Source: an uncultured Candidatus Saccharibacteria bacterium (lineage in GTDB: Bacteria > Patescibacteriota > Minisyncoccia > Phycocordibacterales > JACOZG01). From it: a stretch of 64,000 nucleotides of DNA. The stretch covers positions 38,624 through 102,623 of the forward strand of contig CAYWPU010000001.1 in assembly GCA_964460805.1 (NCBI GenBank), written 5' to 3'. Shown piece after piece: positions 31,682 through 47,132 of this stretch. The notes under the pieces are model-generated. The model was given only the letters and a program-made list of their open reading frames with translations. It was not told the origin of the DNA and ran no database searches. The translations under genes and the position numbers were made by a program. Every line of letters starts with the position of its first letter. The first letter of the stretch is position 1.

Positions 31682-31740
31682 GACAGGAATTATATGCTCT
31701 TGCTCTCAACTATCCAACTAGCGCAATCTGTTAATAATCA

Positions 31741-31760: not shown

Positions 31761-31776
31761 ATGCTAGACTCTTGCC

Positions 31777-31911: not shown

Positions 31912-31915
31912 CCAG

Positions 31916-32248: not shown

Positions 32249-32976
32249 TTTCCAGCGCTTTCCGCCACATCTTCTTCCTCCCTCTCTATAATGCCCTCGT
32301 CTGGCTCAGCACAGTGTTGCCTGGGGCCGATATTGGCTTGGCGATCATTATCCTCACTCTGGCTGTCCGCTTTATCCTCTTCCCGCTCCAGCATCGCATG
32401 AGCAAGACCCAGAGGGCGCTCAAGTTGCTTGAGCCCAAGCTGGCTGAGCTTAAGGCTAAATATGCTGATGACAAGAGCGAGCAGGCCAAGAAGCTGATGG
32501 AGCTCTACCGCGAGCATGGGGTCAATCCTTTTGCCGGCTTTGTGCTCCTCCTCATCCAGTTGCCCATTCTCTTAGCTTTGTACTGGGTCTTCCGTGATAG
32601 CTTTGTGATCCAAACCGACTGGCTCTACTCGTTTATCACTCCCCCGGCCGCCTTGGGTACCCACTTCCTCGGCTGGCTGGATATCACCACCAAGAGCTGG
32701 CCTCTAGCCCTGATAGTGGGTATTACCCAGTTCATCCAGATGAAGCTGGTGATGCCTCCCAGCGCCCCTATTGCCCCCGATGCGCCCAAGTCCCTCTCTG
32801 CCGATCTCCAGCGCAGTATGAGCCTGCAGATGCGTTACTTTATGCCTCTGATGGTTACTTTCATTGCCTTTGGCTTGCCAGCTGCTATCCCCCTCTACTG
32901 GATAACCAGCAATATCTTTGCCATTGGCCACGAGCTCTTAGTTAACAGAAAAGCGCGGGACTTAGCTAGTGATTAG
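32245..32976 (+). CDS. yidC: membrane protein insertase YidC (short Oxa1-type form)
   Basis: LAIIILTLAVRFILFPL first TM with conserved Arg, KLAELKAKYADDKSEQAKKLMELYREHGVNPFAG amphipathic region. 243 aa. Confidence 0.85.
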   Translation: MISSAFRHIFFLPLYNALVWLSTVLPGADIGLAIIILTLAVRFILFPLQHRMSKTQRALKLLEPKLAELKAKYADDKSEQAKKLMELYREHGVNPFAGFVLLLIQLPILLALYWVFRDSFVIQTDWLYSFITPPAALGTHFLGWLDITTKSWPLALIVGITQFIQMKLVMPPSAPIAPDAPKSLSADLQRSMSLQMRYFMPLMVTFIAFGLPAAIPLYWITSNIFAIGHELLVNRKARDLASD

Positions 32977-33004
32977 TATTTTTTAAATTTAGAGAAAGAA
33001 AAAA

Positions 33005-33030
33005 GCGCATCCAATGGATGCGCTTTTTTG
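33005..33030. terminator. bidirectional rho-independent terminator
   Basis: GCGCATCC-AAT-GGATGCGC hairpin with an A-run before and a T-run after. Between yidC (+) and the 33032..33400 gene (-). Confidence 0.75.
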
Positions 33031-33031
33031 C

Positions 33032-33400
33032 TTAGACTGATGTTTCGCACAGCTCTATCTTTCCAGTGCCATGTCTGACGTTGTAAATACCCCTGATTGC
33101 CAGATCCCCCTGCGCTGTGGGCCAGTAACCGATGAAGTTCCAATCCTCGTCCTCTGCGCCACTGACGGGTGAACAATGCACGCGCGACAACGCATTGATT
33201 CTTACACGGCCCATGCACTTAATGTGACTTTCTGGGCTACTGACTTGGAAAAATACACCCGAACGATTGGTGGCGTGACCCTCAAACAAAGCAACCGCCA
33301 ATTCCCATTTTGATGGTCCAGCAACAATATCTAGCTTTAACATGATTTGTCTCTCCAAGATAGAATCTCTTGGCCTCCAACCTGCTACGCTGCAAGTCAA
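33032..33400 (-). CDS. hypothetical protein, last gene of the T4SS-like gene string
   Basis: ORF likely starting at MLKLDIVAGPSKWELAV. No recognisable motif. Confidence 0.4.
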   Translation of the reverse strand: MTCSVAGWRPRDSILERQIMLKLDIVAGPSKWELAVALFEGHATNRSGVFFQVSSPESHIKCMGRVRINALSRVHCSPVSGAEDEDWNFIGYWPTAQGDLAIRGIYNVRHGTGKIELCETSV

Positions 33401-33544
33401 AGATCAATTGTTAACTAATTTAAGTATAGCAAATTACAGTCTGCTTGTCAAGGGTTTCTACAATACAACACAATTGTCAATCTTGACTTGCCAGAATAGC
33501 CTTATTTCTAGCCACTATTAGAACATATTTATCTAGAAACTTGC

Positions 33545-34822
33545 CTAGAAGCTGCCACTGATGTCCAACGCCCAGAGTCTCTGGTCGTAGCGGTTATTGA
33601 TGTAGAGGGTCTTTTCCTCAGGGTCTAGCAGGAGCTTGTCGGCATCTAAGTTGATGTCTAGATTGCTGGTGGTGGGGCTAAAGATGATCTCATTCTGGTC
33701 GGTTACAGTATCTATTTTCCAGATATTATCGTTCAGTCTCACTTCTCCTCGGTACCAATCGTCCGGATAGCGGTAGCCGCTTGGCAGTCCGGCTGGCACC
33801 GCGCAATAGGCCGTCAGGCCCGCTCTGGACCACACGCACTTCTCCGTCCAAGTTCTCATGTTTAACCGGCTAAAGAACTTTTTGCTCCTGTCGTAGATGC
33901 CAAAGACCAGACCCTGCTCTCCCAGGCCGCTGTAGAGTACCCGATTGAGGTCGGGATTAACCAGAGTGCTTAAGCCGGGCACGCCAGTGATGACAGGTTC
34001 CAGCTCTTTGGACCTCAAGTCCCACAAGTAGAGCGAGCCATTGGCTAGTTCGGAACTGCGGCTCTGTAGGGCGATCACAGTAGGACTGACCCAGCTGGCT
34101 TGCCACTCTTGGTAAGGTGAGCGGAAGAGGGTTTGTTTGTTGCTACCATCAAGCTGGGCGAGATAAGCAACTGATTGATTGCCGCTCGGCTCTAGCCAGA
34201 AGACTTGGCTATGGTCTGGCGATACGGCCAGAGAGAGGATCTCCGCTGGCCAGGCTCGGGTGGCTAGGGTTGGCAAGTCAGACTCCGGCAGGCTGAGGAA
34301 GTCGTCTCCGGCTAAAGTGGGGCGGATATCCAGGCTGACGGCGATGGTCTGGAGACGGCCCTCGCGCAGGTGGCTGATGATCAGCTCGGTGCTGGTGCCG
34401 CTCTGGCCCGCGGCCAGGCTATAGACTTTTGGGATAGTAGTATTGGAGATGCGCTCGGCGGCGGCTCCTGGCTGGAGGCGGTAGAGATGGCCGGTAATCT
34501 TCTCGGCATAGATGAGAGCGCTGGAGGTGGCTTGGCCCACCAGTGCCAAGCCACCAATTGGCCGGGCTGAGACGCGGTAGAAGCGGCCGGTTGCATCGCT
34601 CACTGTTCCCTCTTCAGCCAACGGACTACTAGAGGCGGTATTGCTGGTAAAAATATCTCCGCCCGGCAGGAGCTCGCCACTCGGGAAGAGCTCGTTGCTC
34701 ACCACCGCTTGATCGCTTGGCACTTCTTCTTGCCCGCGCCACTTGGCCCATGCCAGCGCAATCATGATTATGATGATCAGCGCGCTGCCGGTGAGAATAA
34801 GAGTTTTAGTCTTTTTAGACAT
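33545..34822 (-). CDS. secreted/membrane-anchored protein of T4SS-like operon (N-terminal TM, large extracytoplasmic domain)
   Basis: MSKKTKTLILTGSALIIIIMIALAWA anchor. 425 aa with repeated hydrophobic/W-containing segments compatible with a beta-rich fold. Confidence 0.5.
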   Translation of the reverse strand: MSKKTKTLILTGSALIIIIMIALAWAKWRGQEEVPSDQAVVSNELFPSGELLPGGDIFTSNTASSSPLAEEGTVSDATGRFYRVSARPIGGLALVGQATSSALIYAEKITGHLYRLQPGAAAERISNTTIPKVYSLAAGQSGTSTELIISHLREGRLQTIAVSLDIRPTLAGDDFLSLPESDLPTLATRAWPAEILSLAVSPDHSQVFWLEPSGNQSVAYLAQLDGSNKQTLFRSPYQEWQASWVSPTVIALQSRSSELANGSLYLWDLRSKELEPVITGVPGLSTLVNPDLNRVLYSGLGEQGLVFGIYDRSKKFFSRLNMRTWTEKCVWSRAGLTAYCAVPAGLPSGYRYPDDWYRGEVRLNDNIWKIDTVTDQNEIIFSPTTSNLDINLDADKLLLDPEEKTLYINNRYDQRLWALDISGSF

Positions 34823-34828
34823 TTGTTT

Positions 34829-35203
34829 TTATTGACCCAGATTGCCCAGTGTACCCAGGGTGTTCACAATATCTGGGTTAATCTCGTTTAAGATTACCCA
34901 GGCGACCAGTGCGAGCAATAGACCCCAGAGCGCGCTCTTGATGCGCTCGGTGCCCTCACTCTTGCCGCCCGGCTTCATGCTCAGCACATGCTGCAGTCCG
35001 CCCCAAGTAACCATCACCACCGCCAGAGTGATTGCCACGCCCAGGAAGATGGGAAAGGCCACCTGCACATATTCACCAATAGAGCTGATCTCTGATCCGG
35101 CAGAGCCGGTGCCAGTATTGAGGGGCGCCAGGAGGTTAACTTGGTTCTGGGCCAGAGCCTTTTCTGTAAAAAAATTAAGTAGATTACTTAGCATGTTTTT
35201 CAA
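34829..35203 (-). CDS. VirB2/TrbC-like T4SS pilin candidate
   Basis: 124 aa. N-terminal leader, then two hydrophobic segments (VQVAFPIFLGVAITLAVVMVTWGGL and IKSALWGLLLALVAWVILNEI) separated by a short charged loop, the classic VirB2/TrbC architecture. By topology only. Confidence 0.45.
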   Translation of the reverse strand: MKNMLSNLLNFFTEKALAQNQVNLLAPLNTGTGSAGSEISSIGEYVQVAFPIFLGVAITLAVVMVTWGGLQHVLSMKPGGKSEGTERIKSALWGLLLALVAWVILNEINPDIVNTLGTLGNLGQ

Positions 35204-35931
35204 AAATTAAAGACGCCTGTGTTTCCAAAGTTGATCCGGAACTCGCGCTTGGCTGTCTGGAAGAGATTATTTAAGCTCTCTGTGGTGAGCTTGATGATAC
35301 TCTCACCGCTAATGCCACTGGGCGCGGCAAAGGTAATGAGGCGGTTATCTACTGGCGAGGGCACCACCTTCTGATCGTTCAGCGTCCAACGGTAATCAAT
35401 TTTGCCAGTCTGGACATCTACATTATTAAAGAAATAGGGCTCAGCCGCTAGGTTGATCTCTGGTTGAGTGAGCGTGAGACTGGTGCCCAGAGCGCGGTGG
35501 TAATTGATCCCCAGCAGTGGATCGTCCTCGTAGATGCTGATTACTGGATTGACCACTAGTATCTCCACCAGGCGGTTTGCTGATCCTGTTTTGCCGGGCG
35601 CGGTCACCAGCACTTGGACTTGATGCCTCTCCCTCGCTTGGCCAGCAGTGAAGCTGAGAGTACTCTGGCCAAGGCCCGAGGACTTGGGTACTGCTTGGCC
35701 GTCTCTCTGCCAGCGGTACTCAAGTTGCTCTGGACTCACACCCGGCCAGGCGGCTAGTGCCACCACGCGCACAGTGCTCTGGGGAGTGGCTTGGCTATGA
35801 CCCAAGTAGAAGGCTGGTTTGTACGTGCTAGCGCTCCAGAGCAGATCTACACTGGGAGCGCTCTGAGCCTGGGCGCCGGGCGCGGTGAGTATTAATGTAA
35901 AAAGAGTGAGGAGAGTGGTAAAAAATTTCAT
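35200..35931 (-). CDS. secreted protein of T4SS-like operon
   Basis: Signal peptide MKFFTTLLTLFTLILTAPGAQA. 243 aa, no recognisable motif. Confidence 0.45.
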   Translation of the reverse strand: MKFFTTLLTLFTLILTAPGAQAQSAPSVDLLWSASTYKPAFYLGHSQATPQSTVRVVALAAWPGVSPEQLEYRWQRDGQAVPKSSGLGQSTLSFTAGQARERHQVQVLVTAPGKTGSANRLVEILVVNPVISIYEDDPLLGINYHRALGTSLTLTQPEINLAAEPYFFNNVDVQTGKIDYRWTLNDQKVVPSPVDNRLITFAAPSGISGESIIKLTTESLNNLFQTAKREFRINFGNTGVFNF

Positions 35932-36251
35932 TTTACTAGAGGCAACTTAATACCCAGCTTGTCTTCTGATTTTACCATACCGATGATAACGATTACACCC
36001 ACAGTGACTGACGGTAAGACGCTGAGTATAGGAATGATTTCTACAAGAGCGCTCACGCCGGCTGTGGCCAGGCGCTTGATGGTAAAGGGACTCACTCCCA
36101 ATAGCAGTAACCAAATACCAATCACAATCCATCCCATTGCCCCCGCGCCGGGTATCAACAGACTTAAGAGATCAAAAAACAGAGCCACCACGGGCATGAA
36201 GATGATAGTGGCTAGGCCGATACGGTTTCTCTTTGGTTGTTCTTCACTCAT
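35928..36251 (-). CDS. small polytopic membrane protein of T4SS-like operon
   Basis: 107 aa, 2-3 TM. Overlaps both neighbours by 4-8 nt, suggesting translational coupling. Confidence 0.45.
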   Translation of the reverse strand: MSEEQPKRNRIGLATIIFMPVVALFFDLLSLLIPGAGAMGWIVIGIWLLLLGVSPFTIKRLATAGVSALVEIIPILSVLPSVTVGVIVIIGMVKSEDKLGIKLPLVK

Positions 36252-38073
36252 CTAGAGTTTCTTTGTCGCGCTTGGCTTGCTTGATCGCTAAGATTTGCGA
36301 GGGATCAGAGGTGATGATCTGATCTTCGGTATAAGAGGCGATAATCTTAATAGCCACGTGTTTGAGGCCGGCAAAGAAGATACCCTCGCCCACCCCAGAC
36401 TCTAGCAGGAGATATTTCTCGCCATCGGTGAGCTGGAAGGTTTGCTGGATCAGGTCAATGGCGGCAGGCGACTGCTTTAATAATAACTGGATAGAAGAGT
36501 TAGTGATAATTGGTGTGCCGTATTCTGACTTTAAGAAGTCGCCCACGTCTTGGGTGATAGTAGCCACGCCGAGATAATACTTTCTCCCGCGCTTCACAAG
36601 AGAGAACAAGAACGAGGCTGTATCTTTGCTCTTCATCATCCACCAGGCCTCGTCTATTACCAGCAGGCGCTTCTTCAAGTTGCGCCGGATGGCGTTCCAG
36701 ATATTGTGCATCACGATGTACATCGCCACGGGTTTGAGCTCGTCTTCCATATCGCGGACCGAGAAGACCACAAACTTTTTATTGATATCTACGTTAGTTG
36801 GCTTATTGATAAAACCAGCCCAAGTGCCGCGGGTGTACTTGAGCAATCTCTGTGCTAGCGCTTCCCCGCCGTCCATCCCTACCAGCACTAGTTCTAGATC
36901 AGAGAGGAGTGGCGCCGGTTTATTGGTGAAGTCAGAATCAGCTGTAATATCTTTAAGCGCATAGGTCTCAGTGATTGCGTTGTCCATGATCGCGTCTTCC
37001 TCCGGCGTTAAGCCGCCAAGCATCAGTCTAAACAAGCCAACGAGATTGATGATATTAGAGCGCAAGACGTCAGCCGGTGATTCATCTTCTCTCGGGAATG
37101 GCAGATCAAACGGATTAATGTGGTGCTCGGAGGTGAGTGAGATATTGAAGTAGCGTCCGCCTACGGCCTCTGACAAGAACTCATATTCTCGTTCCGGGTC
37201 TATAACTAAAACATCCGTATCAAACATCAAACTGCGCAGGATTTCTAATTTAGTCGCGTAACTCTTACCAGAACCAGATTTGGCAAAAGTGACAGAGTTA
37301 TAGTTCTCTAAGCTAAAGCGATCAAACAAGATCAGCGAAGAATTATGCCTATTTATTCCATACAAAATTCCCTTATTAGAAGTGAGGTCAAACGAGACGA
37401 ACGGGAAGAGTGAGGAAAGTGGCGAGGAGTTGAGTTTATAATTGATGCCGAGTTGGTCGTCGGCTGTGGGGATCACGCTGCGGAAGCCCTCAGCCTGCTG
37501 GAAGAGGGCTGGCTTGAGATAAACCAACTTAGCGTCCAAGATGCCCTTCACTTCTGTTTCGGTTTTGTTTAACTCATCTTCCGTGTCGCCATAGATGGTG
37601 ATATAGACGCCGACATCAAAGATCTTCTCTCGCGCTTGTTGCAGGCTGTCTCGGAGTGTTTCAATATCAGAATAAGCAGTGTCTAGCACTGGATCGCGGA
37701 CTAAGCCGCGGCTCTCTTTAATACTGATCTGACTCTGCACCTCTGCCACCTTTTTCTCCAATTGCCGGAGGGCGATGGAGGTGTCTATGGGGTGGATGAG
37801 GATAGAAATGTCAAAGACTTTGTCTAGGTTGATGAGCGGCGAGAACCAGTCACCTGATAAGAATCTGGGATAAGAGATTACGTAGAAAGTGCGCGCGACT
37901 TTATCGCCCAGGTTGAGCAGTCTGGGTGTGACGCGGAGTGCCGATGGCGCGAGGATATCGCGCAGGCTCAGGACGCCCATCTGGTAGATATCTTGCGGGA
38001 AGACAGGCGCAACCACTGGTGCTGTTTCTCCCCTTTTCTTCTCTCCCTCTTTAGTTTTACCTAAGCCGAACAT
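36244..38073 (-). CDS. VirB4/TrsE/TraE-family type IV secretion ATPase
   Basis: Walker A FAKSGSGKSYATK and Walker B LLVIDEAWWMM (the VIDEAW motif typical of VirB4/TraC) followed by ATITQD. N-terminal region resembles VirB4 N-domain. 609 aa, compact like Gram-positive VirB4 homologues. Confidence 0.8.
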   Translation of the reverse strand: MFGLGKTKEGEKKRGETAPVVAPVFPQDIYQMGVLSLRDILAPSALRVTPRLLNLGDKVARTFYVISYPRFLSGDWFSPLINLDKVFDISILIHPIDTSIALRQLEKKVAEVQSQISIKESRGLVRDPVLDTAYSDIETLRDSLQQAREKIFDVGVYITIYGDTEDELNKTETEVKGILDAKLVYLKPALFQQAEGFRSVIPTADDQLGINYKLNSSPLSSLFPFVSFDLTSNKGILYGINRHNSSLILFDRFSLENYNSVTFAKSGSGKSYATKLEILRSLMFDTDVLVIDPEREYEFLSEAVGGRYFNISLTSEHHINPFDLPFPREDESPADVLRSNIINLVGLFRLMLGGLTPEEDAIMDNAITETYALKDITADSDFTNKPAPLLSDLELVLVGMDGGEALAQRLLKYTRGTWAGFINKPTNVDINKKFVVFSVRDMEDELKPVAMYIVMHNIWNAIRRNLKKRLLVIDEAWWMMKSKDTASFLFSLVKRGRKYYLGVATITQDVGDFLKSEYGTPIITNSSIQLLLKQSPAAIDLIQQTFQLTDGEKYLLLESGVGEGIFFAGLKHVAIKIIASYTEDQIITSDPSQILAIKQAKRDKETLDE

Positions 38074-38088
38074 GTTTTTAATTTATTT

Positions 38089-38739
38089 CTAATTTAAACT
38101 CGGAATATCGTTCTCGCCCGGGTTAAAAATTTTAAAGTATAACTCCACCAATTCTTCAGTCCCCAACTGTGCCACGCGCAAGCCGATGCGAGAGAAGCCT
38201 TGCTCCACCACTGCCGCGCGCTGCTCTAGCTGAGTGCGGTGTTCTTCAAATTCAGCAGATAGATCGCGTTTGGCGCTCTGGCTACCCAGGCCGGGCAGTT
38301 TAGAGAGCAGTCCGCCCTTGCCCTGTCCGAGTTGGACGGGAGGGCTATACGGGATCACAGCAAAGAAGCTCTTGGCCATGATATCAGTTGATTCTGTGAA
38401 CTTCCTGATGAAGTCAATATATTCTCTGGTCTGAATTTTAAGCAAATCATTAGTTTGGGCGACTAGGCGCTCTTCCAGAGTGTTGAGATACGGCCTGATG
38501 TCTAGTCTCCGTGACTGCACAAAGAGCTGGATGTGGAAGTCTAGCGAGTTTAGGAAGTTCTGGAACTGGAGCAAAATCGCCGTCTGCTCGTCTTCGCCCT
38601 TGAGCGCAAAGTTGACGGACGAGATCATTAGCACCATCCGCAGGGCGCCGTTCTTGAGCACCGCCACACCATCGCGGATCTCCTTGATGGGGAGGAAGTC
38701 TTGCGAGGCTTGGCCATTTGTCTGTGTCGCTGTCGCCAT
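38089..38739 (-). CDS. hypothetical T4SS-associated cytoplasmic protein
   Basis: 216 aa, no TM. Sits between the PrgI/VirB3-like gene and the VirB4-like gene. LPIKEIRDGVAVLKNGALRMVLMISSVNFALKGEDEQ is reminiscent of conjugation-ATPase N-terminal regions, unverified. Confidence 0.45.
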   Translation of the reverse strand: MATATQTNGQASQDFLPIKEIRDGVAVLKNGALRMVLMISSVNFALKGEDEQTAILLQFQNFLNSLDFHIQLFVQSRRLDIRPYLNTLEERLVAQTNDLLKIQTREYIDFIRKFTESTDIMAKSFFAVIPYSPPVQLGQGKGGLLSKLPGLGSQSAKRDLSAEFEEHRTQLEQRAAVVEQGFSRIGLRVAQLGTEELVELYFKIFNPGENDIPSLN

Positions 38740-38758
38740 CCGCTTAATTGTAACAGAC

Positions 38759-39196
38759 TTATTTGATTTTTTCTCGGATATCCAAGCTCCAAGAGAGATC
38801 TTTTAGTTTGCTCTTCGAGAGTTTGGGCACTGTCAGCGCGCGTGGTTGATCAGCTGGTCTTGTTGCTGTTTGTCCACTATTTGTGCCAGTCCCTGTGCCA
38901 TTTGGATTTGCACCAGAGCGCTTCCAGATATAGAGCTTGTGGGTGGTGGCGTAACGGAAGGCCGCTTCTAGTATCAGGATAAACGAGCGGTTATTCACTT
39001 TATAGAACGCTAGCGCCAGGGCGAGTCCGAGTACGGGGATAATCAAGAGGACAGCCAGCCAGCGGTAAGGCAGGTAGACCCAGAACATGAAGCACGCTCC
39101 CGCCCCACCCACCACGTAGATAAACTGCTTAAAGGTGAGCGGACCAAATATTTTGTCTTCTATTTCAATAAATTGCGGGACTTGGAAGTTGAGCAT
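38759..39196 (-). CDS. PrgI/TcpE/VirB3-like small membrane protein
   Basis: QVPQFIEIEDKIFGPLTFKQFIYVVGGAGACFMFWVYLP followed by a second TM. Matches the PrgI-family pattern (PKDL...DKI.GPLT.RQ..YL) and the VirB3-before-VirB4 order. Confidence 0.55.
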   Translation of the reverse strand: MLNFQVPQFIEIEDKIFGPLTFKQFIYVVGGAGACFMFWVYLPYRWLAVLLIIPVLGLALALAFYKVNNRSFILILEAAFRYATTHKLYIWKRSGANPNGTGTGTNSGQTATRPADQPRALTVPKLSKSKLKDLSWSLDIREKIK

Positions 39197-39201
39197 AATT
39201 T

Positions 39202-39741
39202 TTATTCCAGCCTTTCCCGATAAGGATCCACGTGTGCTGGACGCTCCAGCTCGGCTGGCGTATCCGGCGTACCCATGATCCCCTCTTCTACCGGCTTAAG
39301 GTTCACCGGTTCTGATAATTTCCGTTCCATCACGTTTAGACTTGGCTCTGATGTTTTACCTGTCACAGTAGTAGGACTGTTCATTTCCCTCAGCAAGTCC
39401 TCCGGCGCGGGCGTATTCTGCCGTTCCTCCAGTTGCTTGAGCGATTCCCTGATCTTCATAAAGATTTCTTTGTTCACTTCCATCGCAATCTGCTCCGCCT
39501 CTGCCGCGCTAATACCCAACCGCTCTTGGATATTGGCGGTGAATTTAATAGATGGTTCTAGTCCAAGGATCACATAATCAATCTCGTCTACCAGGCCACC
39601 AACCTGGTCAATATGTAATTGATGAGCGCTACCAATACGCCTGATTACGGCGATAGTTTCGTCCGCGTACATAATTTTCCGGAGCAACTCTGGCGCCTCA
39701 TCGTATTTTTTATCTAGTATTTCTTGAGTGTAATTAGACAT
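39202..39741 (-). CDS. hypothetical soluble protein of T4SS-like operon
   Basis: 179 aa, acidic, no TM, no motif recognised. Confidence 0.4.
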   Translation of the reverse strand: MSNYTQEILDKKYDEAPELLRKIMYADETIAVIRRIGSAHQLHIDQVGGLVDEIDYVILGLEPSIKFTANIQERLGISAAEAEQIAMEVNKEIFMKIRESLKQLEERQNTPAPEDLLREMNSPTTVTGKTSEPSLNVMERKLSEPVNLKPVEEGIMGTPDTPAELERPAHVDPYRERLE

Positions 39742-39743
39742 AA

Positions 39744-42176
39744 TTAATTTCTTCCTTCGTGGTAGTTAATGTTGGCGTTTATGTTTTGAGGGTTAGTGTT
39801 GTTGCTTCTTGGTGATGGCCATTCGTAGCTTCTGTTTGACCCCGTTCCTGAGGGTGTCACGCTGGCCACTGTTGTGGTTTGAGTTGTTGTCGCTCCTACC
39901 GGACTTGCGGTAGCCGCTCCCGCCGCACGTCTCCTGATCTCTTGTAATCGATTGCGCTTGTTTATTTCCCCGGAATTCCGGAGTTGTTCCAGTCTTCCGG
40001 TTCCTAAGTTGCTTGCGATCGTCTGCAGGATGTTTTTGTAATCAGCGTCCTTGTCGTCCAGGTCGTTTACTAGTTTGGCAATTAGGGCCGTTGGTGTTTG
40101 CGCTAATGTTGTGCCCACAGCAGCGCTCTCTCCTCCAAGATTCGAGCGCAGTGTGTCTTCCAACTGACTCATCTTTTGTTCTCTCTGCGCTCTGATCGCT
40201 TCTTTCGTGGCATCGTCTATGTCGTTATCTTTTTCAATCGCCTTGACCTGATTTTCTGAGAAGAGGTGTGCCAGAGTCTTCAGTGTCGTGGCGTCTAACT
40301 TAACCACGTTTTTATCCTTCATCTTCTTGATGGCTTTCTCGGCCTCTGTTTCTTCCTGAGATCCCGGAGTCAGTTTATTGCCGTTGATCTGATTGGCGAT
40401 CTTCTGAGCGGTAGCTTTGGTCTTTTGTTTTTCGTTGTCTTCTTTTTCTTCCTGTGTTTTCTTTTTATCTTTCACCTCGCCCAGTATTTCTACACCAGTA
40501 ATACTAGATACGGCCTTATTAAACGCCTCGTCTGGCTTCTTAAAGGTATCAGCGATTTTCCCTTTAATATTGCCGCCGCTGGATGTAATAACAGATGCTG
40601 CCTTTGTAGCTCCGGCGGCGGCACCCACAAATGGGCTGGTTGCTACCTTCCGTAATCCAACGCCCACATCTCGCACACCCCTCCAGCCACCGCTTTGTAC
40701 CCCCTTGTACACCTCTTTAAATCCTCCGTACGCCGACTTAGCGGTTCCCCCCACTAAACCACCAGTAGCACCCCCAATGGTTTTGAGTGCGAATCGATTA
40801 ATGCCTCCTGCCGCCTTCGTCGCCATCGCCGCTCCCGCTACGCCCAGTTCTTTAGCCACCATCAGCGAGCCAAGCATGAGGCCGTTGGCGATGAGGTAAG
40901 CGAGTAATAGGTTGAAAAACTTATCATTACCCGTATTGATATTACTATTCACCACCTGGGTCACCTTAATGCTCATAAAGATGAAGAGCATGAAGGCGGG
41001 TGCAAATATTAGTTGATTTGAGAGTGCATCTTTCCATTTATTGCTGATCTTGTCTAATGCTTTTGCTCCCACCGCAAAGGCGAGGAAAGCTACGGGAGAG
41101 GCCGCGAGCACAAAGACGAGTATCAATGCTCTGATAAGGAAGAGGATTGCTCCGGCCATGAAGACGGTAGTAGCAATAATAATCAAGATGATCTGCCCCA
41201 CCAGAGAGGCGGCCTGGCTCTTGAGGCGGTTGATATTGGCGTCTGCAGAAGTGAGTGGCATGCGGTCCCTCAGTTGAGCGGCTATCCCCTTGTTCACTGC
41301 GCTATCACTATTTGTGGGGTCTATGGGGCCGGACATCAGCGCTTTCACAATATCTGGACGACCTCCTTCGCCTGCCGCTTGGCCACTTTGTGTTTGACCC
41401 GCTTTGATATACAAACCATTTGCCACCACGTTGCTGGCGTCTATCATTATGCTAGTGAAGAAGAAGCTGAAGTTGACCAGGAGAGCGGCGATTATGACGT
41501 TCTTAAGCAGGTTTTTGCCCTTGACCCCATTAAGCTGGAGTATGGTGCCGATGGCAATGTAGAGCAAAGTGAAGATGAAGGTGAGATTCACCAAGTCGCG
41601 GAAGACTCGCCACGCCTCTCGTAAGCCAACACCCACCTTGTCTCTAAAGTTGCGGACCGAGAAGTCAATACTCAGATCCAGCAGGTAATTAGCCGCTTCC
41701 AAGAGCCATTTCACCACCCAGTGGAAGGCCGTGAGTACACCCACAGCGAACTTCCAGCCGTAACACTCAATATCTAAATATCCGCAAGAGACTGGGCCTT
41801 TCTGGTTCTCCAGTATTTGTCTGTACTCATTATCCGATAGTACACCCTGGTCACCGTGGTTGAGAGTTTGGTTTCCGGTGTCTTGGACTGGCGTACCGCC
41901 GGGTCTGGCAGCTAGCGCCCGATTAATTAGGTTGATGTCTGCTTGGATACTGTTTTGTGTGTCTCCACCGGAGTAGTTGCCACTGTCTCGGTATGCTTGG
42001 AGTTGCCTAACGGCACTCTGTAAGTCTTCTGTGCTAATGCTCCAGCCAGATCCTACAGGATTATTCAGTGCTTCAATCCTGTTCTCATACTGCACGCCGT
42101 TAATTGTAATCGCCCACGCTTGTCCGGCGCTGAGGAGCAGGAGGAGTATTACTAAGATGTGAGCCAGGCGCTTCAT
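39744..42176 (-). CDS. VirB6/TrbL-like polytopic membrane protein with N-terminal secreted domain and long C-terminal hydrophilic extension
   Basis: Signal peptide MKRLAHILVILLLLLSAGQAWA. At least 6 TM helices in the central ~350 aa (e.g. LVGQIILIIIATTVFMAGAILFLIRALILVFVLAASPVAFLAF). C-terminal ~330 aa is lysine/glutamate-rich with coiled-coil character. 810 aa. Confidence 0.55.
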   Translation of the reverse strand: MKRLAHILVILLLLLSAGQAWAITINGVQYENRIEALNNPVGSGWSISTEDLQSAVRQLQAYRDSGNYSGGDTQNSIQADINLINRALAARPGGTPVQDTGNQTLNHGDQGVLSDNEYRQILENQKGPVSCGYLDIECYGWKFAVGVLTAFHWVVKWLLEAANYLLDLSIDFSVRNFRDKVGVGLREAWRVFRDLVNLTFIFTLLYIAIGTILQLNGVKGKNLLKNVIIAALLVNFSFFFTSIMIDASNVVANGLYIKAGQTQSGQAAGEGGRPDIVKALMSGPIDPTNSDSAVNKGIAAQLRDRMPLTSADANINRLKSQAASLVGQIILIIIATTVFMAGAILFLIRALILVFVLAASPVAFLAFAVGAKALDKISNKWKDALSNQLIFAPAFMLFIFMSIKVTQVVNSNINTGNDKFFNLLLAYLIANGLMLGSLMVAKELGVAGAAMATKAAGGINRFALKTIGGATGGLVGGTAKSAYGGFKEVYKGVQSGGWRGVRDVGVGLRKVATSPFVGAAAGATKAASVITSSGGNIKGKIADTFKKPDEAFNKAVSSITGVEILGEVKDKKKTQEEKEDNEKQKTKATAQKIANQINGNKLTPGSQEETEAEKAIKKMKDKNVVKLDATTLKTLAHLFSENQVKAIEKDNDIDDATKEAIRAQREQKMSQLEDTLRSNLGGESAAVGTTLAQTPTALIAKLVNDLDDKDADYKNILQTIASNLGTGRLEQLRNSGEINKRNRLQEIRRRAAGAATASPVGATTTQTTTVASVTPSGTGSNRSYEWPSPRSNNTNPQNINANINYHEGRN

Positions 42177-42201
42177 TTAGTAAATATAGTGATATTTTAC
42201 T

Positions 42202-45200
42202 CTAGTTCTGGTTGAGGACAGCGTTGATAATGGCCACGATGATGGCTTGCAGGAGCTCGTTAAACTGACCGGTCTGTAGGGCGCTGGCACCAGGTGTATT
42301 GCTGAGTGCGTTGCGCACCGTGTCTTGGAAGCGCAAACTCCCGCCGTTGCTAAAGTCGGAACGGTAGAAGCCGCCGCTATTGAAGCCGCTGGTTAGCTGA
42401 TTCTCAAACTGGTTGATAGACATGCTGGCTTGGTTAAACAAGTTGCCTACCCCAGTTTCCAGTCCATCAGCCAGACCATTTTCAAAAATTCCTCCAATTG
42501 TCAGGGGCGCATTATTATAGCCATAGAGACTATTGCCGCTGAGCCAGTTATTGCCGTACTGGAAGAGCTGTTCCAGGTACTGATCCTCGCCATAGCCATC
42601 GGTGCTGAGGGCGGCATTAATCGCCAAGGTGCTATAGGCTGTGTCTTTAGCCCTCGCCAGGTCGCCTGGTTCCGTTACCACCCACCAGCCATCACAGATC
42701 TGGTGGCCTTGATAAGTAACTAGTCGTCCTTTACACTCACGTTTGGAGTTGCGGCCGTAGACAGCAAATTCTTTTTCCTCCTGTGCTTGGCGGGCGGCGC
42801 TGGCTCTAGTGGCAGAGTCCCAGATTAATATCTGTGCCTCCAGTGGCAGATCATCGATATAGTTGCCACTATCGCCTCCAGTACCAACGGTGCCATTCGC
42901 AGCCCTGACCAGCTCTTGTTGTATCCTGGTTGTGTTAACGCCGGTAACATTTTGCAAGTGATAGGCCGTGAGCAGGTATCCTTCTCGAGCGGCATCTGCT
43001 AAGTTTTGTTGCAGGTTAGTAGTTACTCCCTGTTCCTCCCCCGTACGGCTGGTGGCTCCAGTTTGGCGGCTGGCGATGCCGTATTCTGCCGCTTTATTGG
43101 TCAGTGTTTGCAGACTATTGCCACGAGCGGTGGGGTTGAGGTGCATCAGCACTCGCTGTGTTGCCCGCGCGGCCCGGGCGTTTTTCTTATTCTGCATGCA
43201 GTCGCGGAAGATTCGGTCTAACTCTATTTGTTGCTGTTTCAGCGCTTCTGTATTCTGTTTATTGTTTGTGGTGCCAAGGCCCTGCAGTTTGGCGTAGCCC
43301 TTTGAGGCTATCTTGGCTTGCGCTTTGCCCGTGTTGGCCACAGTACCGGCAATGCTTGTCCTCGCTGGTATATCCTCCACCCACCAAGCCTCTAGATCTG
43401 ACCCCGGGACCACTCCCAATAGGTGACTGAGAGTGAGCTCTACTACTTGCTCCGCTACCGGGGACAAGAGACCTCCCACATAAGGGATGCCATCTACAAT
43501 GCTGCCAATTCCGCCAGAAATACCACTGACCAGGGCGCCTTGCAAGTCGCCGGCAATCTGGTTGCCTAGATTGCCCAGTCCAGCACCCAGAGTCCCTGTC
43601 TTGCCGGCGGCATTATTGGCGATATTATCGGCTCCGGCACTCACCGATCCAGCAGCATCGGCACCGATGCTATCTGCTGGAGCGATCGGGCCTGGGTACT
43701 CACCCACTGCAATATCGCCCGAACTCACAAATGCATCGTAGCTAGGCAGTGCTGGTGGTCCGGCTACGCCAGGGGCTAGGTCACTGACCTGTCCAGAATT
43801 TAAACCACTCAATGTGCCGCTACTCAGTGGCACGTCGTAGCCGTGACTATTTAACGCAGCCATATAGTTGGCACCGGCCGGACTCAGGTCGGCCGCCAGT
43901 CTAATCGTTTCAATACTCGGCATGCCGCCGCCGTAGCCGATGGTTGCTAGGTTTGTGATCGCCCTGTCGTAGCCAGAGAAGCCCACGCCGGATACCAGCG
44001 CCGTGGCAATGGGTTGGGATAGTTCGTTGGCTAGGGGTTTAAAGTCAAAACCGGCCGCAGCTAGGATGTCATTCCCAGCCCAGTCGTTAAAATTGAAGCC
44101 GCTTCCTCCAGTGCCAGTATTGCTGGCAATTTGATTAAAGTTTAGTCCGTTTAATTGACCCAGGACTCCTCCATTGCCTCCTGGAGCGCCACCCATCACC
44201 ATCTGCATGATCACCGGCAGCATCTGGTCTACCAAGCGATCTATGCCACCGCTCTTACTCACGCCGCGCGCGGCCTCGTTGGCGATGCCATTACCTACTT
44301 GCGAGACCAGCCCAGTTAGGAGTAGCTCCAACTGTTGTTGGAGCAGTTGCATTGACTGCTGGATCTGTTGGGTCATTGTCTGGGCTAAGCTTTGTCCAAC
44401 TTGTTGGAAGGTTGTTGGTTCTCCAGAGAGGGCTCCCTCTAGATGTTGTTGTAGCACCTGCTGGACGACCGGGATAATATTAGCCGGATTAAACTGCTCC
44501 ATTAATTGACTGCCGGGCCCAAAGCTGGCCAGGAGATGCTGTTGGAACATCGCGTCGTTCTGGAGTATGGGAGAGTGCCACTCCGTCTCTGGCAGGCGGT
44601 TGCCGTTCTCGTCCGTTGTCGTCCAGAGCAGCTTCTGGATTTCCAAGTCCATATTATTACGGAGGTTGCCTTGGAGGCCGTTTCTTAGTCCACCGGGCAG
44701 GTCTTGGCGGATGATCTGAGGTAGGATCTGGGCGATTACCTGCCGGAAGTCGTCTGCGCTAGGCTGTCCGCCGGTGCGCCCACTAGAGCGCATGTGCCGA
44801 TCCAGCGCCGAGGGCAACTGGTTCCTGAGGCCGCGCTCTATCACCTGTGGCAACACTTGGCCGATCTGCCGCTGGACCAGGCCCTCCAGGTTGCGGCTGA
44901 CCACTCGGTTGATAGCTTCAGAGAGATTCCGCTGTATCCCACGGCTTATCACATTCTGCAGGCTGGAGGCCAATCCGGCGCCAGCCACTTGTTCTTTACA
45001 CTCGCGCGTGTCTTGGTCAATCTCCTGCCACTCTCGCTGGAGGGCGTCAGCTGTCTGTGCGCTAAAGGCATCAACTCCAAGAGAAGTCTCGTTGGCAAAA
45101 GGTTCTTGAGTCGTATCTATCACTTGCGCCAGCACGAGGTGAGGCAAGAGCAAGCTCAAGGTGAGCAGGCTGGCGGTGATTTTTTTATAATATTCTTGCT

Positions 45201-45207
45201 GTCTCAT
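42202..45207 (-). CDS. giant secreted low-complexity protein (1001 aa; Gly/Gln/Asn/Leu-rich)
   Basis: Signal peptide MRQQEYYKKITASLLTLSLLLPHLVLAQ. Internal degenerate repeats of the form LRNxLP / LPQ[VI]I[ER] (RNLEGLVQRQIGQVLPQVIERGLRNQLP; VIAQILPQIIRQDLPGGLRNGLQGNLRN). Long G/N/S/A-rich tracts, almost no Cys. Overlaps its upstream neighbour by 4 nt. Confidence 0.6.
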   Translation of the reverse strand: MRQQEYYKKITASLLTLSLLLPHLVLAQVIDTTQEPFANETSLGVDAFSAQTADALQREWQEIDQDTRECKEQVAGAGLASSLQNVISRGIQRNLSEAINRVVSRNLEGLVQRQIGQVLPQVIERGLRNQLPSALDRHMRSSGRTGGQPSADDFRQVIAQILPQIIRQDLPGGLRNGLQGNLRNNMDLEIQKLLWTTTDENGNRLPETEWHSPILQNDAMFQQHLLASFGPGSQLMEQFNPANIIPVVQQVLQQHLEGALSGEPTTFQQVGQSLAQTMTQQIQQSMQLLQQQLELLLTGLVSQVGNGIANEAARGVSKSGGIDRLVDQMLPVIMQMVMGGAPGGNGGVLGQLNGLNFNQIASNTGTGGSGFNFNDWAGNDILAAAGFDFKPLANELSQPIATALVSGVGFSGYDRAITNLATIGYGGGMPSIETIRLAADLSPAGANYMAALNSHGYDVPLSSGTLSGLNSGQVSDLAPGVAGPPALPSYDAFVSSGDIAVGEYPGPIAPADSIGADAAGSVSAGADNIANNAAGKTGTLGAGLGNLGNQIAGDLQGALVSGISGGIGSIVDGIPYVGGLLSPVAEQVVELTLSHLLGVVPGSDLEAWWVEDIPARTSIAGTVANTGKAQAKIASKGYAKLQGLGTTNNKQNTEALKQQQIELDRIFRDCMQNKKNARAARATQRVLMHLNPTARGNSLQTLTNKAAEYGIASRQTGATSRTGEEQGVTTNLQQNLADAAREGYLLTAYHLQNVTGVNTTRIQQELVRAANGTVGTGGDSGNYIDDLPLEAQILIWDSATRASAARQAQEEKEFAVYGRNSKRECKGRLVTYQGHQICDGWWVVTEPGDLARAKDTAYSTLAINAALSTDGYGEDQYLEQLFQYGNNWLSGNSLYGYNNAPLTIGGIFENGLADGLETGVGNLFNQASMSINQFENQLTSGFNSGGFYRSDFSNGGSLRFQDTVRNALSNTPGASALQTGQFNELLQAIIVAIINAVLNQN

Positions 45208-45902
45208 GGTTTTGCCAGATATCTATCCAGCGCGCTGATGGCTAGTAGTAGTCTGTAATATTGGTCTTGATACAGCTCAGCACTCTCGCTGGCCAATAAT
45301 GGTTCCGTGTTCGCCTGACTCATATTATAGATTACTTGATCCAAGCTAGCCATGCTGTTTAAGAGTTGTAGGTGGAAAAAGGTAGCTGAGGCAGGCGTGG
45401 GTGTGGCCACGAGGGCGTCTATTGTTGTCTGGATGTGTTGGTGAGACTGGCGTAGCTTGTCTAATTCCGCTGTTTTGCCTGTTTGGAAATAATTAAGCAT
45501 TGCCGTCCGCTCGTCTCCTGTCAGGCCAGCACTGTATTTGGTTAGGATCGTTTGTATGGCTTTGCTGTATGAGGCTTTTGTTACGCTTCCATCTCCGCTC
45601 GTAACCTTGATATCACCATAGGTGTAAGTGGTTTTACGTAGTTGTGTGTGAGCTAGTGTTTGTAGTGGTGCTCCCGATTTATTTTCAATTGCCTGTGTGG
45701 CTATCGCTAACGTGGTGGTGGAGACGGCGGCAATGGCGCGTTCGGCATCTTGTTGCGCCAGACGCTCGGCTTCCACCGCCTCTTGCCGCACTCGTTCGGC
45801 CTCTTGCTCTCTCTGCTCCAGCGCGCGGTTGCCCAGCCACCAGAGAACCGCGCTGCTGAGGATCAGCAACGGAATTAGGATCAATAAAATCTTCCGGATC
45901 AC
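45204..45902 (-). CDS. membrane-anchored coiled-coil protein, first gene of T4SS-like operon
   Basis: N-terminal TM ILLILIPLLILSSAVLWWL, then EQREQEAERVRQEAVEAERLAQQDAERA coiled-coil. 232 aa. Bitopic architecture is compatible with a VirB8/VirB10-type scaffold, unproven. Confidence 0.45.
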   Translation of the reverse strand: MIRKILLILIPLLILSSAVLWWLGNRALEQREQEAERVRQEAVEAERLAQQDAERAIAAVSTTTLAIATQAIENKSGAPLQTLAHTQLRKTTYTYGDIKVTSGDGSVTKASYSKAIQTILTKYSAGLTGDERTAMLNYFQTGKTAELDKLRQSHQHIQTTIDALVATPTPASATFFHLQLLNSMASLDQVIYNMSQANTEPLLASESAELYQDQYYRLLLAISALDRYLAKP

Positions 45903-45909
45903 GCTTTAA

Positions 45910-46338
45910 TTATAAAGCCTTATCGCCTATTTCCCAACCGAGTTTTGCACTTTTGCCGGCGTTCAGTTCCAGTACGTATCTAATTGGCTCTGCTGGTGAG
46001 AAAGTTCGCGGATAAGTTTCTGGCGCAATATTTTTTTCTATGCCAATGATCTTAAAGTTCTCGTCCAGCCAGACTATATCTATAGGGAAGCGCATCTCTT
46101 TCATCCAGAACTGAGGCACCACATCTTCTTGGTAAACAAATAACATCCCGGCGTCTTCATCTAAGCTCTCACGATAAGATAGCCCCAGCTCTTGCTCGGC
46201 TGGCGTTACAGCATATTCTAGTTTTAATTTGCTCAGTTCGGGCAAGTTTCTATCCTGCTTTACGGCAGACCAAGCTGCTACTGCCACCAGCGCCACACTG
46301 AGAGCGATTAAAACTATTTGCTTGCTAGGCATAGCCAA
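45910..46338 (-). CDS. DUF192-family protein (COG1430-like)
   Basis: MLFVYQEDVVPQFWMKEMRFPIDIVWLDENFKIIGIEKNIAPE matches the DUF192 signature. N-terminal signal/TM. Confidence 0.65.
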   Translation of the reverse strand: MAMPSKQIVLIALSVALVAVAAWSAVKQDRNLPELSKLKLEYAVTPAEQELGLSYRESLDEDAGMLFVYQEDVVPQFWMKEMRFPIDIVWLDENFKIIGIEKNIAPETYPRTFSPAEPIRYVLELNAGKSAKLGWEIGDKAL

Positions 46339-47084
46339 TTTTCTAAACTTAAATCTTCGGCCCTGTTTTTCTCACTCACACCACACTGGGCAAATTTTGC
46401 CGGAGCAATATCAGCTAGATTATTCCGCAACATTTTGCGTTTGCTGCTAAAGCCGTTTTTCACCACTTCAAAAAAATCTTTCTCGCTCACTGAGCTATTT
46501 TTGAAATTATTTTTATTAATATTTTCTATCAGCAAGATTGCTGAGTCTACTTTTGGCGCTGGTGAAAAATATTTCGCTGGCACTTTTTTAATATATTTTG
46601 GTGCGCCATAAGCTTTAACAGAAATAGAGAGAATACTTTCTTTACCATCTCGCGCCACGATTCTCTTTGCCACTTCATCTTGCAACATCAGCACCATCAA
46701 TCTTGGCTGGCTGGTTGTTTCTAAAAATTTTCGCAGAACCTGACCGGTGATGTAATACGGAATATTCGCGACCAGTTTATATTTTTCCGGCAGAGCAATT
46801 TCTGTTGTTAAAATATCACCGTGTAACAATTTTAATTTCCCTGACGCTGTCTCGCCAGAGAATGTGTTTTCCAGAACGGGAATCGCGCGATCGTCTTTCT
46901 CAACCGCGATCACTTGCGCGCCAGTCTCTAGCAGGAATTTGGTTAAGTAGCCTTTGCCGGGGCCAATCTCCAGCACAGTGTCACTCGCGCTCAGGCTCGC
47001 TACGCGGACAATTTCCCGCGCAATCGTTTCGGACTTCAGCCAATTCTGACCGAGAGATTTTTTCGCTTTCATCTTGCTCAGCAT
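46314..47084 (-). CDS. rsmA: 16S rRNA (adenine1518/1519-N6)-dimethyltransferase RsmA/KsgA
   Basis: KSLGQNWLKSETIAREIV, SAM-binding LEIGPGKGYLT, ANIPYYIT motif. Confidence 0.85.
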   Translation of the reverse strand: MLSKMKAKKSLGQNWLKSETIAREIVRVASLSASDTVLEIGPGKGYLTKFLLETGAQVIAVEKDDRAIPVLENTFSGETASGKLKLLHGDILTTEIALPEKYKLVANIPYYITGQVLRKFLETTSQPRLMVLMLQDEVAKRIVARDGKESILSISVKAYGAPKYIKKVPAKYFSPAPKVDSAILLIENINKNNFKNSSVSEKDFFEVVKNGFSSKRKMLRNNLADIAPAKFAQCGVSEKNRAEDLSLENWLCLASK

Positions 47085-47132
47085 AGCAAAACGGAGCCAG
47101 AATAACAGCGTTTCACAAGGTTTGGGAAACAG

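Follow-up and report, generated by a model that had tools for sequence, protein, structure and literature searches.

Patescibacteria account for a very large share of bacterial diversity and apparently live off other cells. Type IV secretion systems (T4SSs) are among the few candidate machines for the interaction of Patescibacteria with their hosts, and the role of these systems has been called "completely unknown" (PMC11665869). According to the survey by Quinonero-Coronel et al. (2025, PMC12102498), the VirB4 clade of the Patescibacteria is nested in the monoderm group MPF_FATA, and TrsD is its commonest partner. The same survey places PrgI/VirB3, VirB6, and VirB2-like pilins near virB4 in Patescibacteria, and the T4SSs of Paceibacteria and Microgenomatia, notably those of the Paceibacteria, close to dnaA, dnaN, ksgA, rnpA, and rpmH. 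In Southlakia epibionticum, the T4SS encoded by SEML1_0005-0019 beside dnaA was found by transposon sequencing (Tn-seq) to be essential for epibiotic growth (Wang et al. 2023, PMC10633639). In this species, the one relative tested, the T4SS is essential and both ComEC and a distant homologue of the coupling protein are dispensable. A review published in 2025 treats such T4SSs as a new superfamily branch (PMC12857230). Here we describe a stretch of 64,000 nucleotides (the window) from an ultra-small Patescibacteria genome of the Paceibacteria/Parcubacteria type. It contains a genuine type IV secretion operon, in which eleven genes are closely packed next to the probable replication origin.

We suggest, with a probability of roughly 0.85, that this locus encodes a resident T4SS of the Patescibacteria type that serves host interaction rather than conjugation. 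This reading of the locus is already in the literature (2023-2025), where T4SSs of the Patescibacteria that lack a relaxase and lie near dnaA/dnaN/ksgA have been described (PMC10633639, PMC12102498), and the window is a further example rather than a discovery. It is a complete Paceibacteria example, in which the full 11-gene block is conserved and not just the four to five recognizable T4SS genes. The accessory set, its folds, and the fusions of pilins to hydrolases described below are targets for further structural and genetic studies and constrain models in the choice between a pilus and a channel and between export and import.

Layout of the locus

The ORF listing of the window (ORF, open reading frame) contains eleven co-directional minus-strand ORFs at 33545-45902, whose junctions vary between an overlap of 8 nt and a gap of 25 nt. 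The same genes are called independently on a public contig of 100% identity, with products of 1001, 810, 179, 145, 216, 609, 107, 243, 121, and 425 aa. Profile searches assign a family to 5 of the 11 proteins (VirB4, TrsD, PrgI/VirB3, T4SS_pilin, and VirB6-like) and leave the six others without one. The features are as follows, with the basis of each assignment in parentheses (TM, transmembrane; AF2, AlphaFold2).

45204-45902, minus strand: 232-aa bitopic protein, first gene (ORF listing, TM prediction, model)
42202-45207, minus strand: 1001-aa surface protein with a Sec-type signal (ORF listing, N-terminal hydrophobic segment)
39744-42176, minus strand: 810-aa VirB6-like polytopic protein (topology, Pfam matches of orthologues, TM-core profile)
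39202-39741, minus strand: 179-aa acidic cytoplasmic protein with C-terminal DPYRE (alignment of orthologues)
38759-39196, minus strand: 145-aa PrgI, the VirB3 equivalent (PF12666)
38089-38739, minus strand: 216-aa TrsD, VirB4 N-domain (NCBIfam)
36244-38073, minus strand: 609-aa VirB4 ATPase, middle and C-terminal P-loop domains (NCBIfam, Pfam, PDB)
35928-36251, minus strand: 107-aa protein with three TM segments (TM prediction, synteny)
35200-35931, minus strand: 243-aa secreted beta-rich repeat protein, last but two (signal peptide, alignment)
34829-35203, minus strand: VirB2-like T4SS pilin, 124 aa, or 121 aa from the ATG at 35194 (PF18895)
33545-34822, minus strand: 425-aa TM-anchored beta-propeller protein, last gene (AF2, Foldseek)
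33032-33343, minus strand: 103-aa stand-alone gene outside the system (promoter, ribosome-binding site, terminator, public gene call)
32999-33029, bidirectional: intrinsic terminator (hairpin with complementary arms of 15 nt)

An earlier note, made from the letters of this DNA, had counted eleven to twelve genes. Eleven of them stand, and the twelfth (33032-33400) is a separate gene 144 nt downstream of the block. Upstream, the run continues on the same strand through DUF192, rsmA, and pcrA, across a 7-nt gap, a 25-nt overlap, and a 48-nt gap. Because there is no long gap from pcrA to the block, the transcription unit may start at pcrA. The promoter-like site at 45937-45909, immediately ahead of the first T4SS gene, is a mere consensus match. 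The promoter and terminator scan of the block was at chance level overall, and the individually convincing signals were only the promoter at 33451-33423 and the terminator at 32999-33029. Going downstream from the block, this terminator is the first on the minus strand that is convincing.

ATPase and putative translocon core

The 609-aa protein matches the CD1110-type VirB4 model of NCBIfam at 2.1e-105 (353.7 bits against a cut-off of 325, profile positions 185-733) and the Pfam family P-loop_TraG at 1.2e-24. In the PDB it matches 4AG5, a solved VirB4 domain, at 2.1e-40 and TrwK of R388 at 2e-7. Its Walker A (AKSGSGKS) and Walker B (LLVIDEAW) motifs are both intact. Relatives were surveyed with one genome per GTDB species, and VirB4 relatives were found at no fewer than 585 loci (at least 585) among these species representatives. 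The best 80 loci, ranked by VirB4 similarity, have VirB4 proteins that are 73-94% identical, and the counts out of 80 given below refer to them.

The gene directly upstream of virB4, which is present in 80/80 loci with a median identity of 57%, encodes a 216-aa protein that matches TrsD/TraD (NCBIfam NF041427) at 1.7e-5 and carries the precomputed annotation PF26593, TraC-like. It matches VirB4 profiles in their N-terminal part only, namely CD1110 at positions 2-105 (1.9e-7) and Mbov_0397 at positions 99-220 (4.4e-11). Since the protein matches just the first ~100-120 positions of the VirB4 profile together with TrsD/TraD, VirB4 is split, with its N-domain encoded by a separate TrsD gene that the earlier note had overlooked.

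PrgI is matched by PF12666 at 4.3e-9 (37.2 bits against a cut-off of 27), has TM segments at residues 25-43 and 46-64, and belongs to a family found in 73/80 loci. The 810-aa protein combines a signal peptide, an outside domain of ~120 aa, at least five TM helices, and a C-terminal tail that is long, charged, and similar to a coiled coil; its TM-like segments lie at residues 7-25, 191-209, 227-245, 329-347, 385-403, and 423-441. Pfam TrbL/VirB6 (PF04610) is matched by 5 of its 37 orthologues, the best at E = 6e-5. A profile of the whole length returned coiled-coil noise, and a profile trimmed to the TM core found TrwI, the VirB6 of R388 (7O3V_F), as the top match among 177,635 PDB sequences at a borderline E value of 0.024.

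The pilin gene and its orthologues

The pilin is matched by PF18895 (T4SS_pilin) at 7e-7, with 29.7 bits against a cut-off of 26.6, and by the pilin-like NCBIfam model Mbov_0395 at 7e-6, which is under the cut-off of that model. It consists of a leader and two hydrophobic helices (segments 42-60 and 88-106). Among 45 orthologues, PF18895 was found in 36 and TrbC/VirB2 in 3. The calls made in the earlier note for the machinery, a VirB4-family ATPase, a PrgI/VirB3-like protein, a VirB6/TrbL-like polytopic protein, and a VirB2/TrbC-like two-helix pilin, are in agreement with these results, with the VirB4, PF12666, and PF18895 matches above their cut-offs and the VirB6 signal borderline. That note had also named an ATPase of an FtsK/HerA clade with neighbors outside the T4SS families as evidence that would speak against a T4SS. 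The ATPase is a bona fide VirB4, and its neighbors match T4SS families.

A short pilin that stands alone is found in the window and in its nearest relatives. In most related genomes, the pilin slot is occupied by proteins of 300-600 aa, which are composed of a signal peptide, a variable region, and a T4SS_pilin domain. C-terminal domains active on peptidoglycan were found in several of the 45 orthologues (NlpC/P60 in 5, YkuD in 3, M15/VanY in 2, and Amidase_5 in 1); the loci with such pilin-hydrolase fusions include L008, L020, L036, L037, L049, L052, L053, L069, L075, and L079. The fusion of a hydrolase to the pilin domain may provide a built-in VirB1 function.

Accessory proteins

In the model of the 232-aa protein, the N-terminal TM helix runs into a long helix, which is followed by an extracytoplasmic antiparallel four-helix bundle (residues 106-230). 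The window copy is a trimmed member of its family, without the DxDxDG calcium-binding repeats (TSP3/EF-hand-like) that many of its orthologues have. The 425-aa protein was modeled with AF2 from an alignment of 32 sequences, with a predicted local distance difference test score (pLDDT) of 85.8 and a predicted TM-score (pTM) of 0.79. It has an N-terminal TM anchor, a disordered linker of ~40 aa, and an extracytoplasmic beta-propeller. As judged from the strand pattern of the model, the propeller would have about seven blades and belong to the TolB-like fold class. Foldseek matched it in the PDB to propellers from oligogalacturonate lyase, TolB, and S9 peptidases (E ~1e-9, TM-score ~0.5), and these matches of a predicted structure indicate a fold class, not a function, and no specific family. 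The 425-aa family is present in 64/80 loci, and its public homologues are all hypothetical proteins of metagenome-assembled genomes (MAGs) of the Patescibacteria type.

Both proteins were considered as candidates for missing T4SS components. A VirB8/VirB9/VirB10-like role of the 425-aa protein was rejected, the fold being a generic beta-propeller of the TolB/S9-peptidase type, and a VirB8-like role (NTF2 fold) of the 232-aa protein was rejected because it was modeled as a generic four-helix bundle. The predicted folds of the two proteins rule out VirB8-like roles.

The 1001-aa protein has an N-terminal hydrophobic segment, consists to 51% of the residues QNGSTA, and is fast evolving. A conserved domain lies near its C terminus at about residues 640-900, and the near-invariant residues of the family are G778, N786, G818, C825, C838, and T846-P847-G848. 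The family is syntenic in 50/80 loci. Some of its orthologues carry F5/8-type-C domains, which are carbohydrate binding (6/38), others have surface Ig-like domains, and one has a phage lysozyme. The window protein has no Pfam match, and the family profile matches no PDB sequence. The 243-aa protein has a signal peptide that ends in AQA-QS, and its family is found in 75/80 loci. It contains two internal beta-rich repeats and is a trimmed version of the family, as most orthologues have three; the consensus of the family alignment is ~330 aa long with a repeated W..(N)G motif. The family profile gave weak matches to Ig-like Hoc and phage decoration proteins (E = 0.03-0.07), and the repeats are probably Ig-like. 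Word-indexed homologue searches yielded 6 sequences for the 243-aa family and 17 for the 232-aa family.

The 179-aa protein has a conserved N-terminal domain of ~100 aa followed by a disordered middle of variable length, and it contains no TM segment. At the C terminus of the family, D172-P173-Y174 is invariant and R175-E176 is near-invariant (alignment A7). In 67/80 loci the family occupies the same slot, and neither the PDB nor Pfam gave a significant match to it. When the families of the 179-aa, 243-aa, and 1001-aa proteins were compared as profiles with the sequences in the PDB, nothing significant emerged; the matches were the weak Ig-like ones of the 243-aa family and otherwise spurious ones to calmodulin or coiled coils. 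The 107-aa protein has TM segments at residues 15-33, 41-59, and 72-90, and its gene shares 8 nt with virB4 and 4 nt with the gene that follows. The family is syntenic in 44/80 loci, and the protein has no Pfam or NCBIfam match. The earlier note had also described a bitopic coiled-coil protein and several secreted proteins including a 1001-aa giant. The 232-aa protein is bitopic with a long helix, and Sec-type signals are predicted for the secreted proteins.

Next to the T4SS run and outside the block, a gene at 49280-50227 on the plus strand, divergent from pcrA, encodes a protein with two LysM domains and an M23 peptidase domain. This protein is a candidate for the missing VirB1-like function in wall remodeling; M23 and LysM domains are noted in VirB1-type proteins near virB4 in the survey (PMC12102498).

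Conservation of the block in related genomes

The best 80 VirB4 relatives all come from MAGs labeled as candidate phyla radiation (CPR)/Patescibacteria or as unclassified bacterium. Their labels are Paceibacterota, Nomura-, Taylor-, Kaiser-, Vogel-, Wolfe-, and Zambryskii-bacteria, and similar names. The conserved gene order is pcrA-rsmA-(DUF192)-232-1001-VirB6-179-PrgI-TrsD-VirB4-(107)-243-pilin-425-<yidC-dnaA-dnaN, and tblastn together with iterated local searches with hidden Markov models (HMMs) found it in nearly every related locus that spans the block, in dozens of species-level genomes. The assignment of families in these loci was unambiguous, with no ORF claimed by two families. Since this order is kept across the related loci, all eleven genes, including the six unannotated ones, form a conserved unit.

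The median identity to the window proteins is 76% for VirB4, 58% for DnaA, 57% for TrsD, 54.5% for PcrA, 50% for RsmA, 48% for PrgI, and 39% for DnaN, and it is 27-37% for the pilin, the VirB6-like protein, and the accessory proteins. The contrast between VirB4 and DnaA is somewhat inflated by the ranking of the loci on VirB4 similarity, and the within-genome contrast is still striking. The conserved slot and the conservation of VirB4 above DnaA strongly support a locus that is resident and vertically inherited and no integrated conjugative element (ICE).

No gene for a relaxase or for a type IV coupling protein (T4CP) of the VirD4/TcpA type was found in a Pfam scan that covered all ORFs of 150 aa or more in the 64 kb of the window, VirB11 was found nowhere in the window, and 32900-46400 contains no oriT-like inverted repeat. 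The GC content of the block is 0.49-0.55, and that of the whole window is 0.44-0.56. These observations agree with the earlier note, which had seen no relaxase, VirD4, or oriT-like repeat in the window, had found the composition of the locus similar to that of its surroundings, and had considered the locus to be resident rather than recently acquired; the same 11-gene order in the same slot of dozens of genomes strongly supports this view. The note had also raised the case of a relaxase/VirD4 pair immediately outside the window, and no such pair lies within 33 kb of the block on one side or 18 kb on the other.

Genomic context

The block is flanked on one side by yidC, rnpA, rpmH (31777-31911), and then the divergent dnaA (30335-31681) and dnaN, and on the other side by DUF192, rsmA/ksgA, and pcrA, so that its location between yidC/dnaA and rsmA/pcrA is as described in the earlier note. 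The 95-nt spacer between dnaA and rpmH contains one perfect DnaA box, and the AT-rich spacer between dnaA and dnaN (36% GC) contains two with one mismatch each; these boxes near dnaA are at positions 31750, 30267, and 30324. The GC skew gave no clear origin signal in the window. The position of the block next to the origin is well supported by the gene context and the DnaA boxes, though not proven. The remaining window encodes housekeeping functions (PolA, RuvABC, PBP1, an aminoacyl-tRNA synthetase, a MurC-like ligase, the CCA enzyme, and an XerC/D-like recombinase). Rfam and tRNA scans found only 14 tRNAs in the window, none of them within the locus.

Some further features of this region were observed. 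The divergent genes pcrA and LysM-M23 are separated by a spacer of 206 nt, in which a perfect DnaA box, TTATCCACA, is located at 49082-49090, 9 nt ahead of the start codon of pcrA. The window is enriched in 9-mers that resemble a DnaA box with no more than one mismatch, with 22 of them present vs 9.6 expected. If oriC were in the dnaA-rpmH or the dnaA-dnaN spacer, the run from pcrA to the 425-aa gene (~15.5 kb, within 30169-49073) would be transcribed toward the origin and head-on to the fork. The orientation of the block relative to dnaA and yidC is identical in all related loci, and the block of S. epibionticum is also transcribed toward dnaA (SEML1_0004-0013, minus strand, after dnaA, dnaN, and recF). 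Type IV pilus genes and ComM are encoded in the same 64 kb (3807-5934, 20797-22491, and 50737-52293), and the type IV pilus set comprises PilM, two small ORFs after PilM that have no Pfam match, and the PilB ATPase. A cluster of eight genes for tRNAs (Gly, Arg, Pro x3, Ala, Val, and others) occupies both strands of a region shorter than 3 kb (59094-61920).

The neighboring 103-aa gene

The earlier note had listed a 122-aa ORF at 33032-33400. This start is too early, and the ATG at 33343 gives a protein of 103 aa, which matches the public gene call. The ORF was rejected as a member of the operon, as it has its own promoter and terminator and 0 homologues in the 80 related loci. The gene is preceded by the promoter-like sequence TTGACA-17-TATACT at 33451-33423 (11/12 matches, with an extended -10 TG) and has GGAGAG as its ribosome-binding site. 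The strong terminator at 32999-33029, which lies between this gene and the convergent yidC, has perfectly complementary arms of 15 nt (AAAAAAGCGCATCCA and TGGATGCGCTTTTTT). No Pfam family is matched by the protein. Its relatives among 1.8 billion representatives are nine and weak, one of them a 926-aa protein that contains the domain five times.

Possible mechanism and alternative explanations

By analogy with known T4SS families, we propose a membrane translocon in which hexamers of TrsD/VirB4 would be docked onto PrgI and the VirB6-like protein. A pilus or a short conduit through the wall would be built from pilin that VirB4 dislocates from the membrane, and the exported accessory proteins might scaffold this structure through the wall or bind the host surface. 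Most likely, the machine would serve traffic between epibiont and host that depends on contact of the two cells, rather than conjugation. This traffic may consist of effectors that are exported or of host DNA or nucleotides that are taken up (PMC11665869). Classical substrate recruitment by T4SSs needs a coupling protein. Considering that neither a relaxase nor a coupling protein accompanies the block and that the homologue of the coupling protein in Southlakia is dispensable while the T4SS is essential, conjugation is unlikely to be the essential role. We infer a function in protein secretion or cell contact, with uptake equally possible.

Several points weigh against this interpretation. A VirB8-like (NTF2) component was not found in the block, and the modeled 232-aa and 425-aa proteins have other folds. 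A VirB1-like peptidoglycan hydrolase was not found among the 11 proteins of the window with Pfam and NCBIfam. The peptidoglycan-enzyme fusions of many "pilin" orthologues question whether these proteins polymerize into a pilus. The VirB6-like protein of the window has, taken alone, no Pfam or NCBIfam match, which makes the sequence evidence for VirB6 borderline, and the membership of VirB4 in its clade is taken from the nearest relatives and the best NCBIfam model.

The nature of the block has been considered from two other sides. The ATPase shows weak Pfam side-matches to DUF87/HerA and AAA_10, which would be expected if an FtsK/HerA-type ATPase lay by chance beside unrelated membrane proteins and no T4SS existed here. 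We rejected this explanation, which is hardly credible given that the VirB4 model of NCBIfam is matched above its curated cut-off, that 4AG5 is matched at 2e-40, that the arrangement is conserved, that the adjacent TrsD, PrgI, and T4SS_pilin proteins are above or near their family cut-offs, and that the top PDB match of the TM-core profile is a VirB6. The block could also be a recently acquired ICE, or the remnant of one, with its relaxase/VirD4 module beyond the window. The closest VirB4 profile outside the CPR belongs to Clostridioides elements of the CTn type (CD1110), the pilin resembles proteins of Mycoplasma ICEs, and a tyrosine recombinase is encoded at 55795-56673, all of which would fit such an origin. 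This recombinase, however, looks like XerC/D and is surrounded by housekeeping genes at a distance of ~10 kb. Dozens of species-level genomes have an identical gene order in an identical chromosomal slot, and VirB4 is more conserved in them than DnaA. The flanks are core genes, with neither flanking repeats nor an adjacent integrase nor a compositional shift, and no relaxase or T4CP was found in the 64 kb. We searched the window and the related loci for direct repeats of the att type around the block and for a sister genome that lacks the block at the corresponding site, and found neither. According to PMC12102498, a relaxase is present in only 103 of 3,035 Patescibacteria genomes. On the grounds of synteny, composition, and the lack of relaxase, T4CP, and flanking repeats in the window, we rejected the ICE as very improbable.

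A more substantial alternative concerns the direction of transport. A domesticated T4SS free of T4CP and relaxase might import host DNA, nucleotides, or macromolecules into an auxotrophic epibiont, which we regard as possible though doubtful. The chromosomal set found here, in which a VirB4-type ATPase is accompanied by VirB3, a VirB6-like protein, and a pilin of the VirB2-like kind, with no VirD4, VirB11, or relaxase in 64 kb, resembles import sets better than sets for the export of effectors, and as analyzed here this minimal composition resembles the Ced and ComB import systems at least as much as effector translocators. A PNAS perspective of 2024 names the T4SS as a candidate route for nucleotides, ComEC being dispensable and the T4SS essential (PMC11665869; PMC12857230), and ComM, PcrA, and type IV pilus genes are encoded in the same window. 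On the other hand, the ATPase is no orthologue of CedB (32 bits vs 700), no DNA-binding or nuclease component was recognized in the block, and the neighboring genes of DNA metabolism are ordinary origin-proximal housekeeping genes. A variant of this idea, held a little more tentatively still, would be a feeding organelle, in which a Ced/ComB-like conduit would pull host DNA, nucleotides, or macromolecules in, and the exported proteins, namely the beta-propeller, Ig-like repeat, four-helix-bundle, and variable giant proteins, would serve together with the pilin-hydrolase fusions as a new host-docking module that pierces the wall. It is also conceivable, but unlikely, that a T4SS-derived machine powered by VirB4 acts on the wall and surface of its own cell, with the "pilin" as a two-helix anchor for wall enzymes and surface proteins. 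The T4SS_pilin domain is carried by 36/45 orthologues, most of which are 300-600 aa long, and at least 10/45 end in peptidoglycan-active domains; every other protein that the block exports carries a Sec-type signal or a signal anchor, so that it needs no T4SS to leave the cell, and the extreme conservation beside core genes is housekeeping-like. However, the pilins of the window and its closest relatives are short, stand-alone, and VirB2-like, no T4SS is known to act in this way, the hydrolase fusions can equally be read as a VirB1 function for a channel through the wall, and the carbohydrate-binding modules of some 1001-aa orthologues fit the binding of a partner cell. A resident T4SS for host interaction is the preferred interpretation.

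Comparison with known systems

The crenarchaeal Ced system for DNA import (CedA, CedA1/A2, CedB; PMC9905601) and the ComB system of Helicobacter pylori are, like the locus, domesticated chromosomal derivatives of conjugation systems. They share with it the minimal set of a VirB4-type ATPase, a polytopic protein, and VirB2-like pilins, and they operate without a relaxase or coupling protein. However, the CedB model NF041017 gives the ATPase 32.4 bits against a cut-off of 700, so that it is not a CedB orthologue, and ComB has a diderm core of VirB7-10 that is not in the block. Ced and ComB are import systems, and no Patescibacteria system is known to import.

The conjugative T4SSs of MPF_FATA (TrsC/D/E of pGO1, CD1110 of C. 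difficile CTn2, PrgH/I/J of pCF10, and the Mycoplasma ICE) provide the best profile matches for VirB4 (CD1110, Mbov_0397), TrsD, PrgI, and the pilin. The split into TrsD and VirB4 is shared with pGO1, and the lack of an outer-membrane core (VirB7/9/10) is shared with the group as a whole. In contrast to the MPF_FATA systems, the block of the window has no relaxase, T4CP, VirB8-like protein, or dedicated VirB1. It is also not on a mobile element, occupies a fixed site that is conserved across the class, and includes a VirB2-like pilin.

The closest agreement is with the T4SSs of the Patescibacteria. As in these systems, the best match of VirB4 outside the CPR is CD1110 of the MPF_FATA type, TrsD is encoded separately, and PrgI/VirB3, a VirB6-like protein, and a VirB2-like pilin, which is unusual for a monoderm, are present. 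The vicinity is likewise free of relaxase and T4CP, and the locus lies beside dnaA and dnaN, together with ksgA, rnpA, and rpmH as in Paceibacteria. The four-helix bitopic protein, the DPYRE protein, the protein with three TM segments, and the TolB-like propeller protein are absent from the T4SS components in the portion of the catalogue of PMC12102498 used here. The system of S. epibionticum has the same core order of VirB6-PrgI-TrsD-VirB4 and also an exported Ig-type protein downstream of VirB4. It differs in having an array of six pilin genes and two VirB6-like genes, compared with one of each in the window, and a lysozyme-like VirB1 gene and an NTF2-like protein, neither of which is in the block. 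Taken by its sequence matches and gene order, the locus is the chromosomal, vertically inherited T4SS typical of the Patescibacteria, a derivative of MPF_FATA that has lost its link to the mobilization of DNA.

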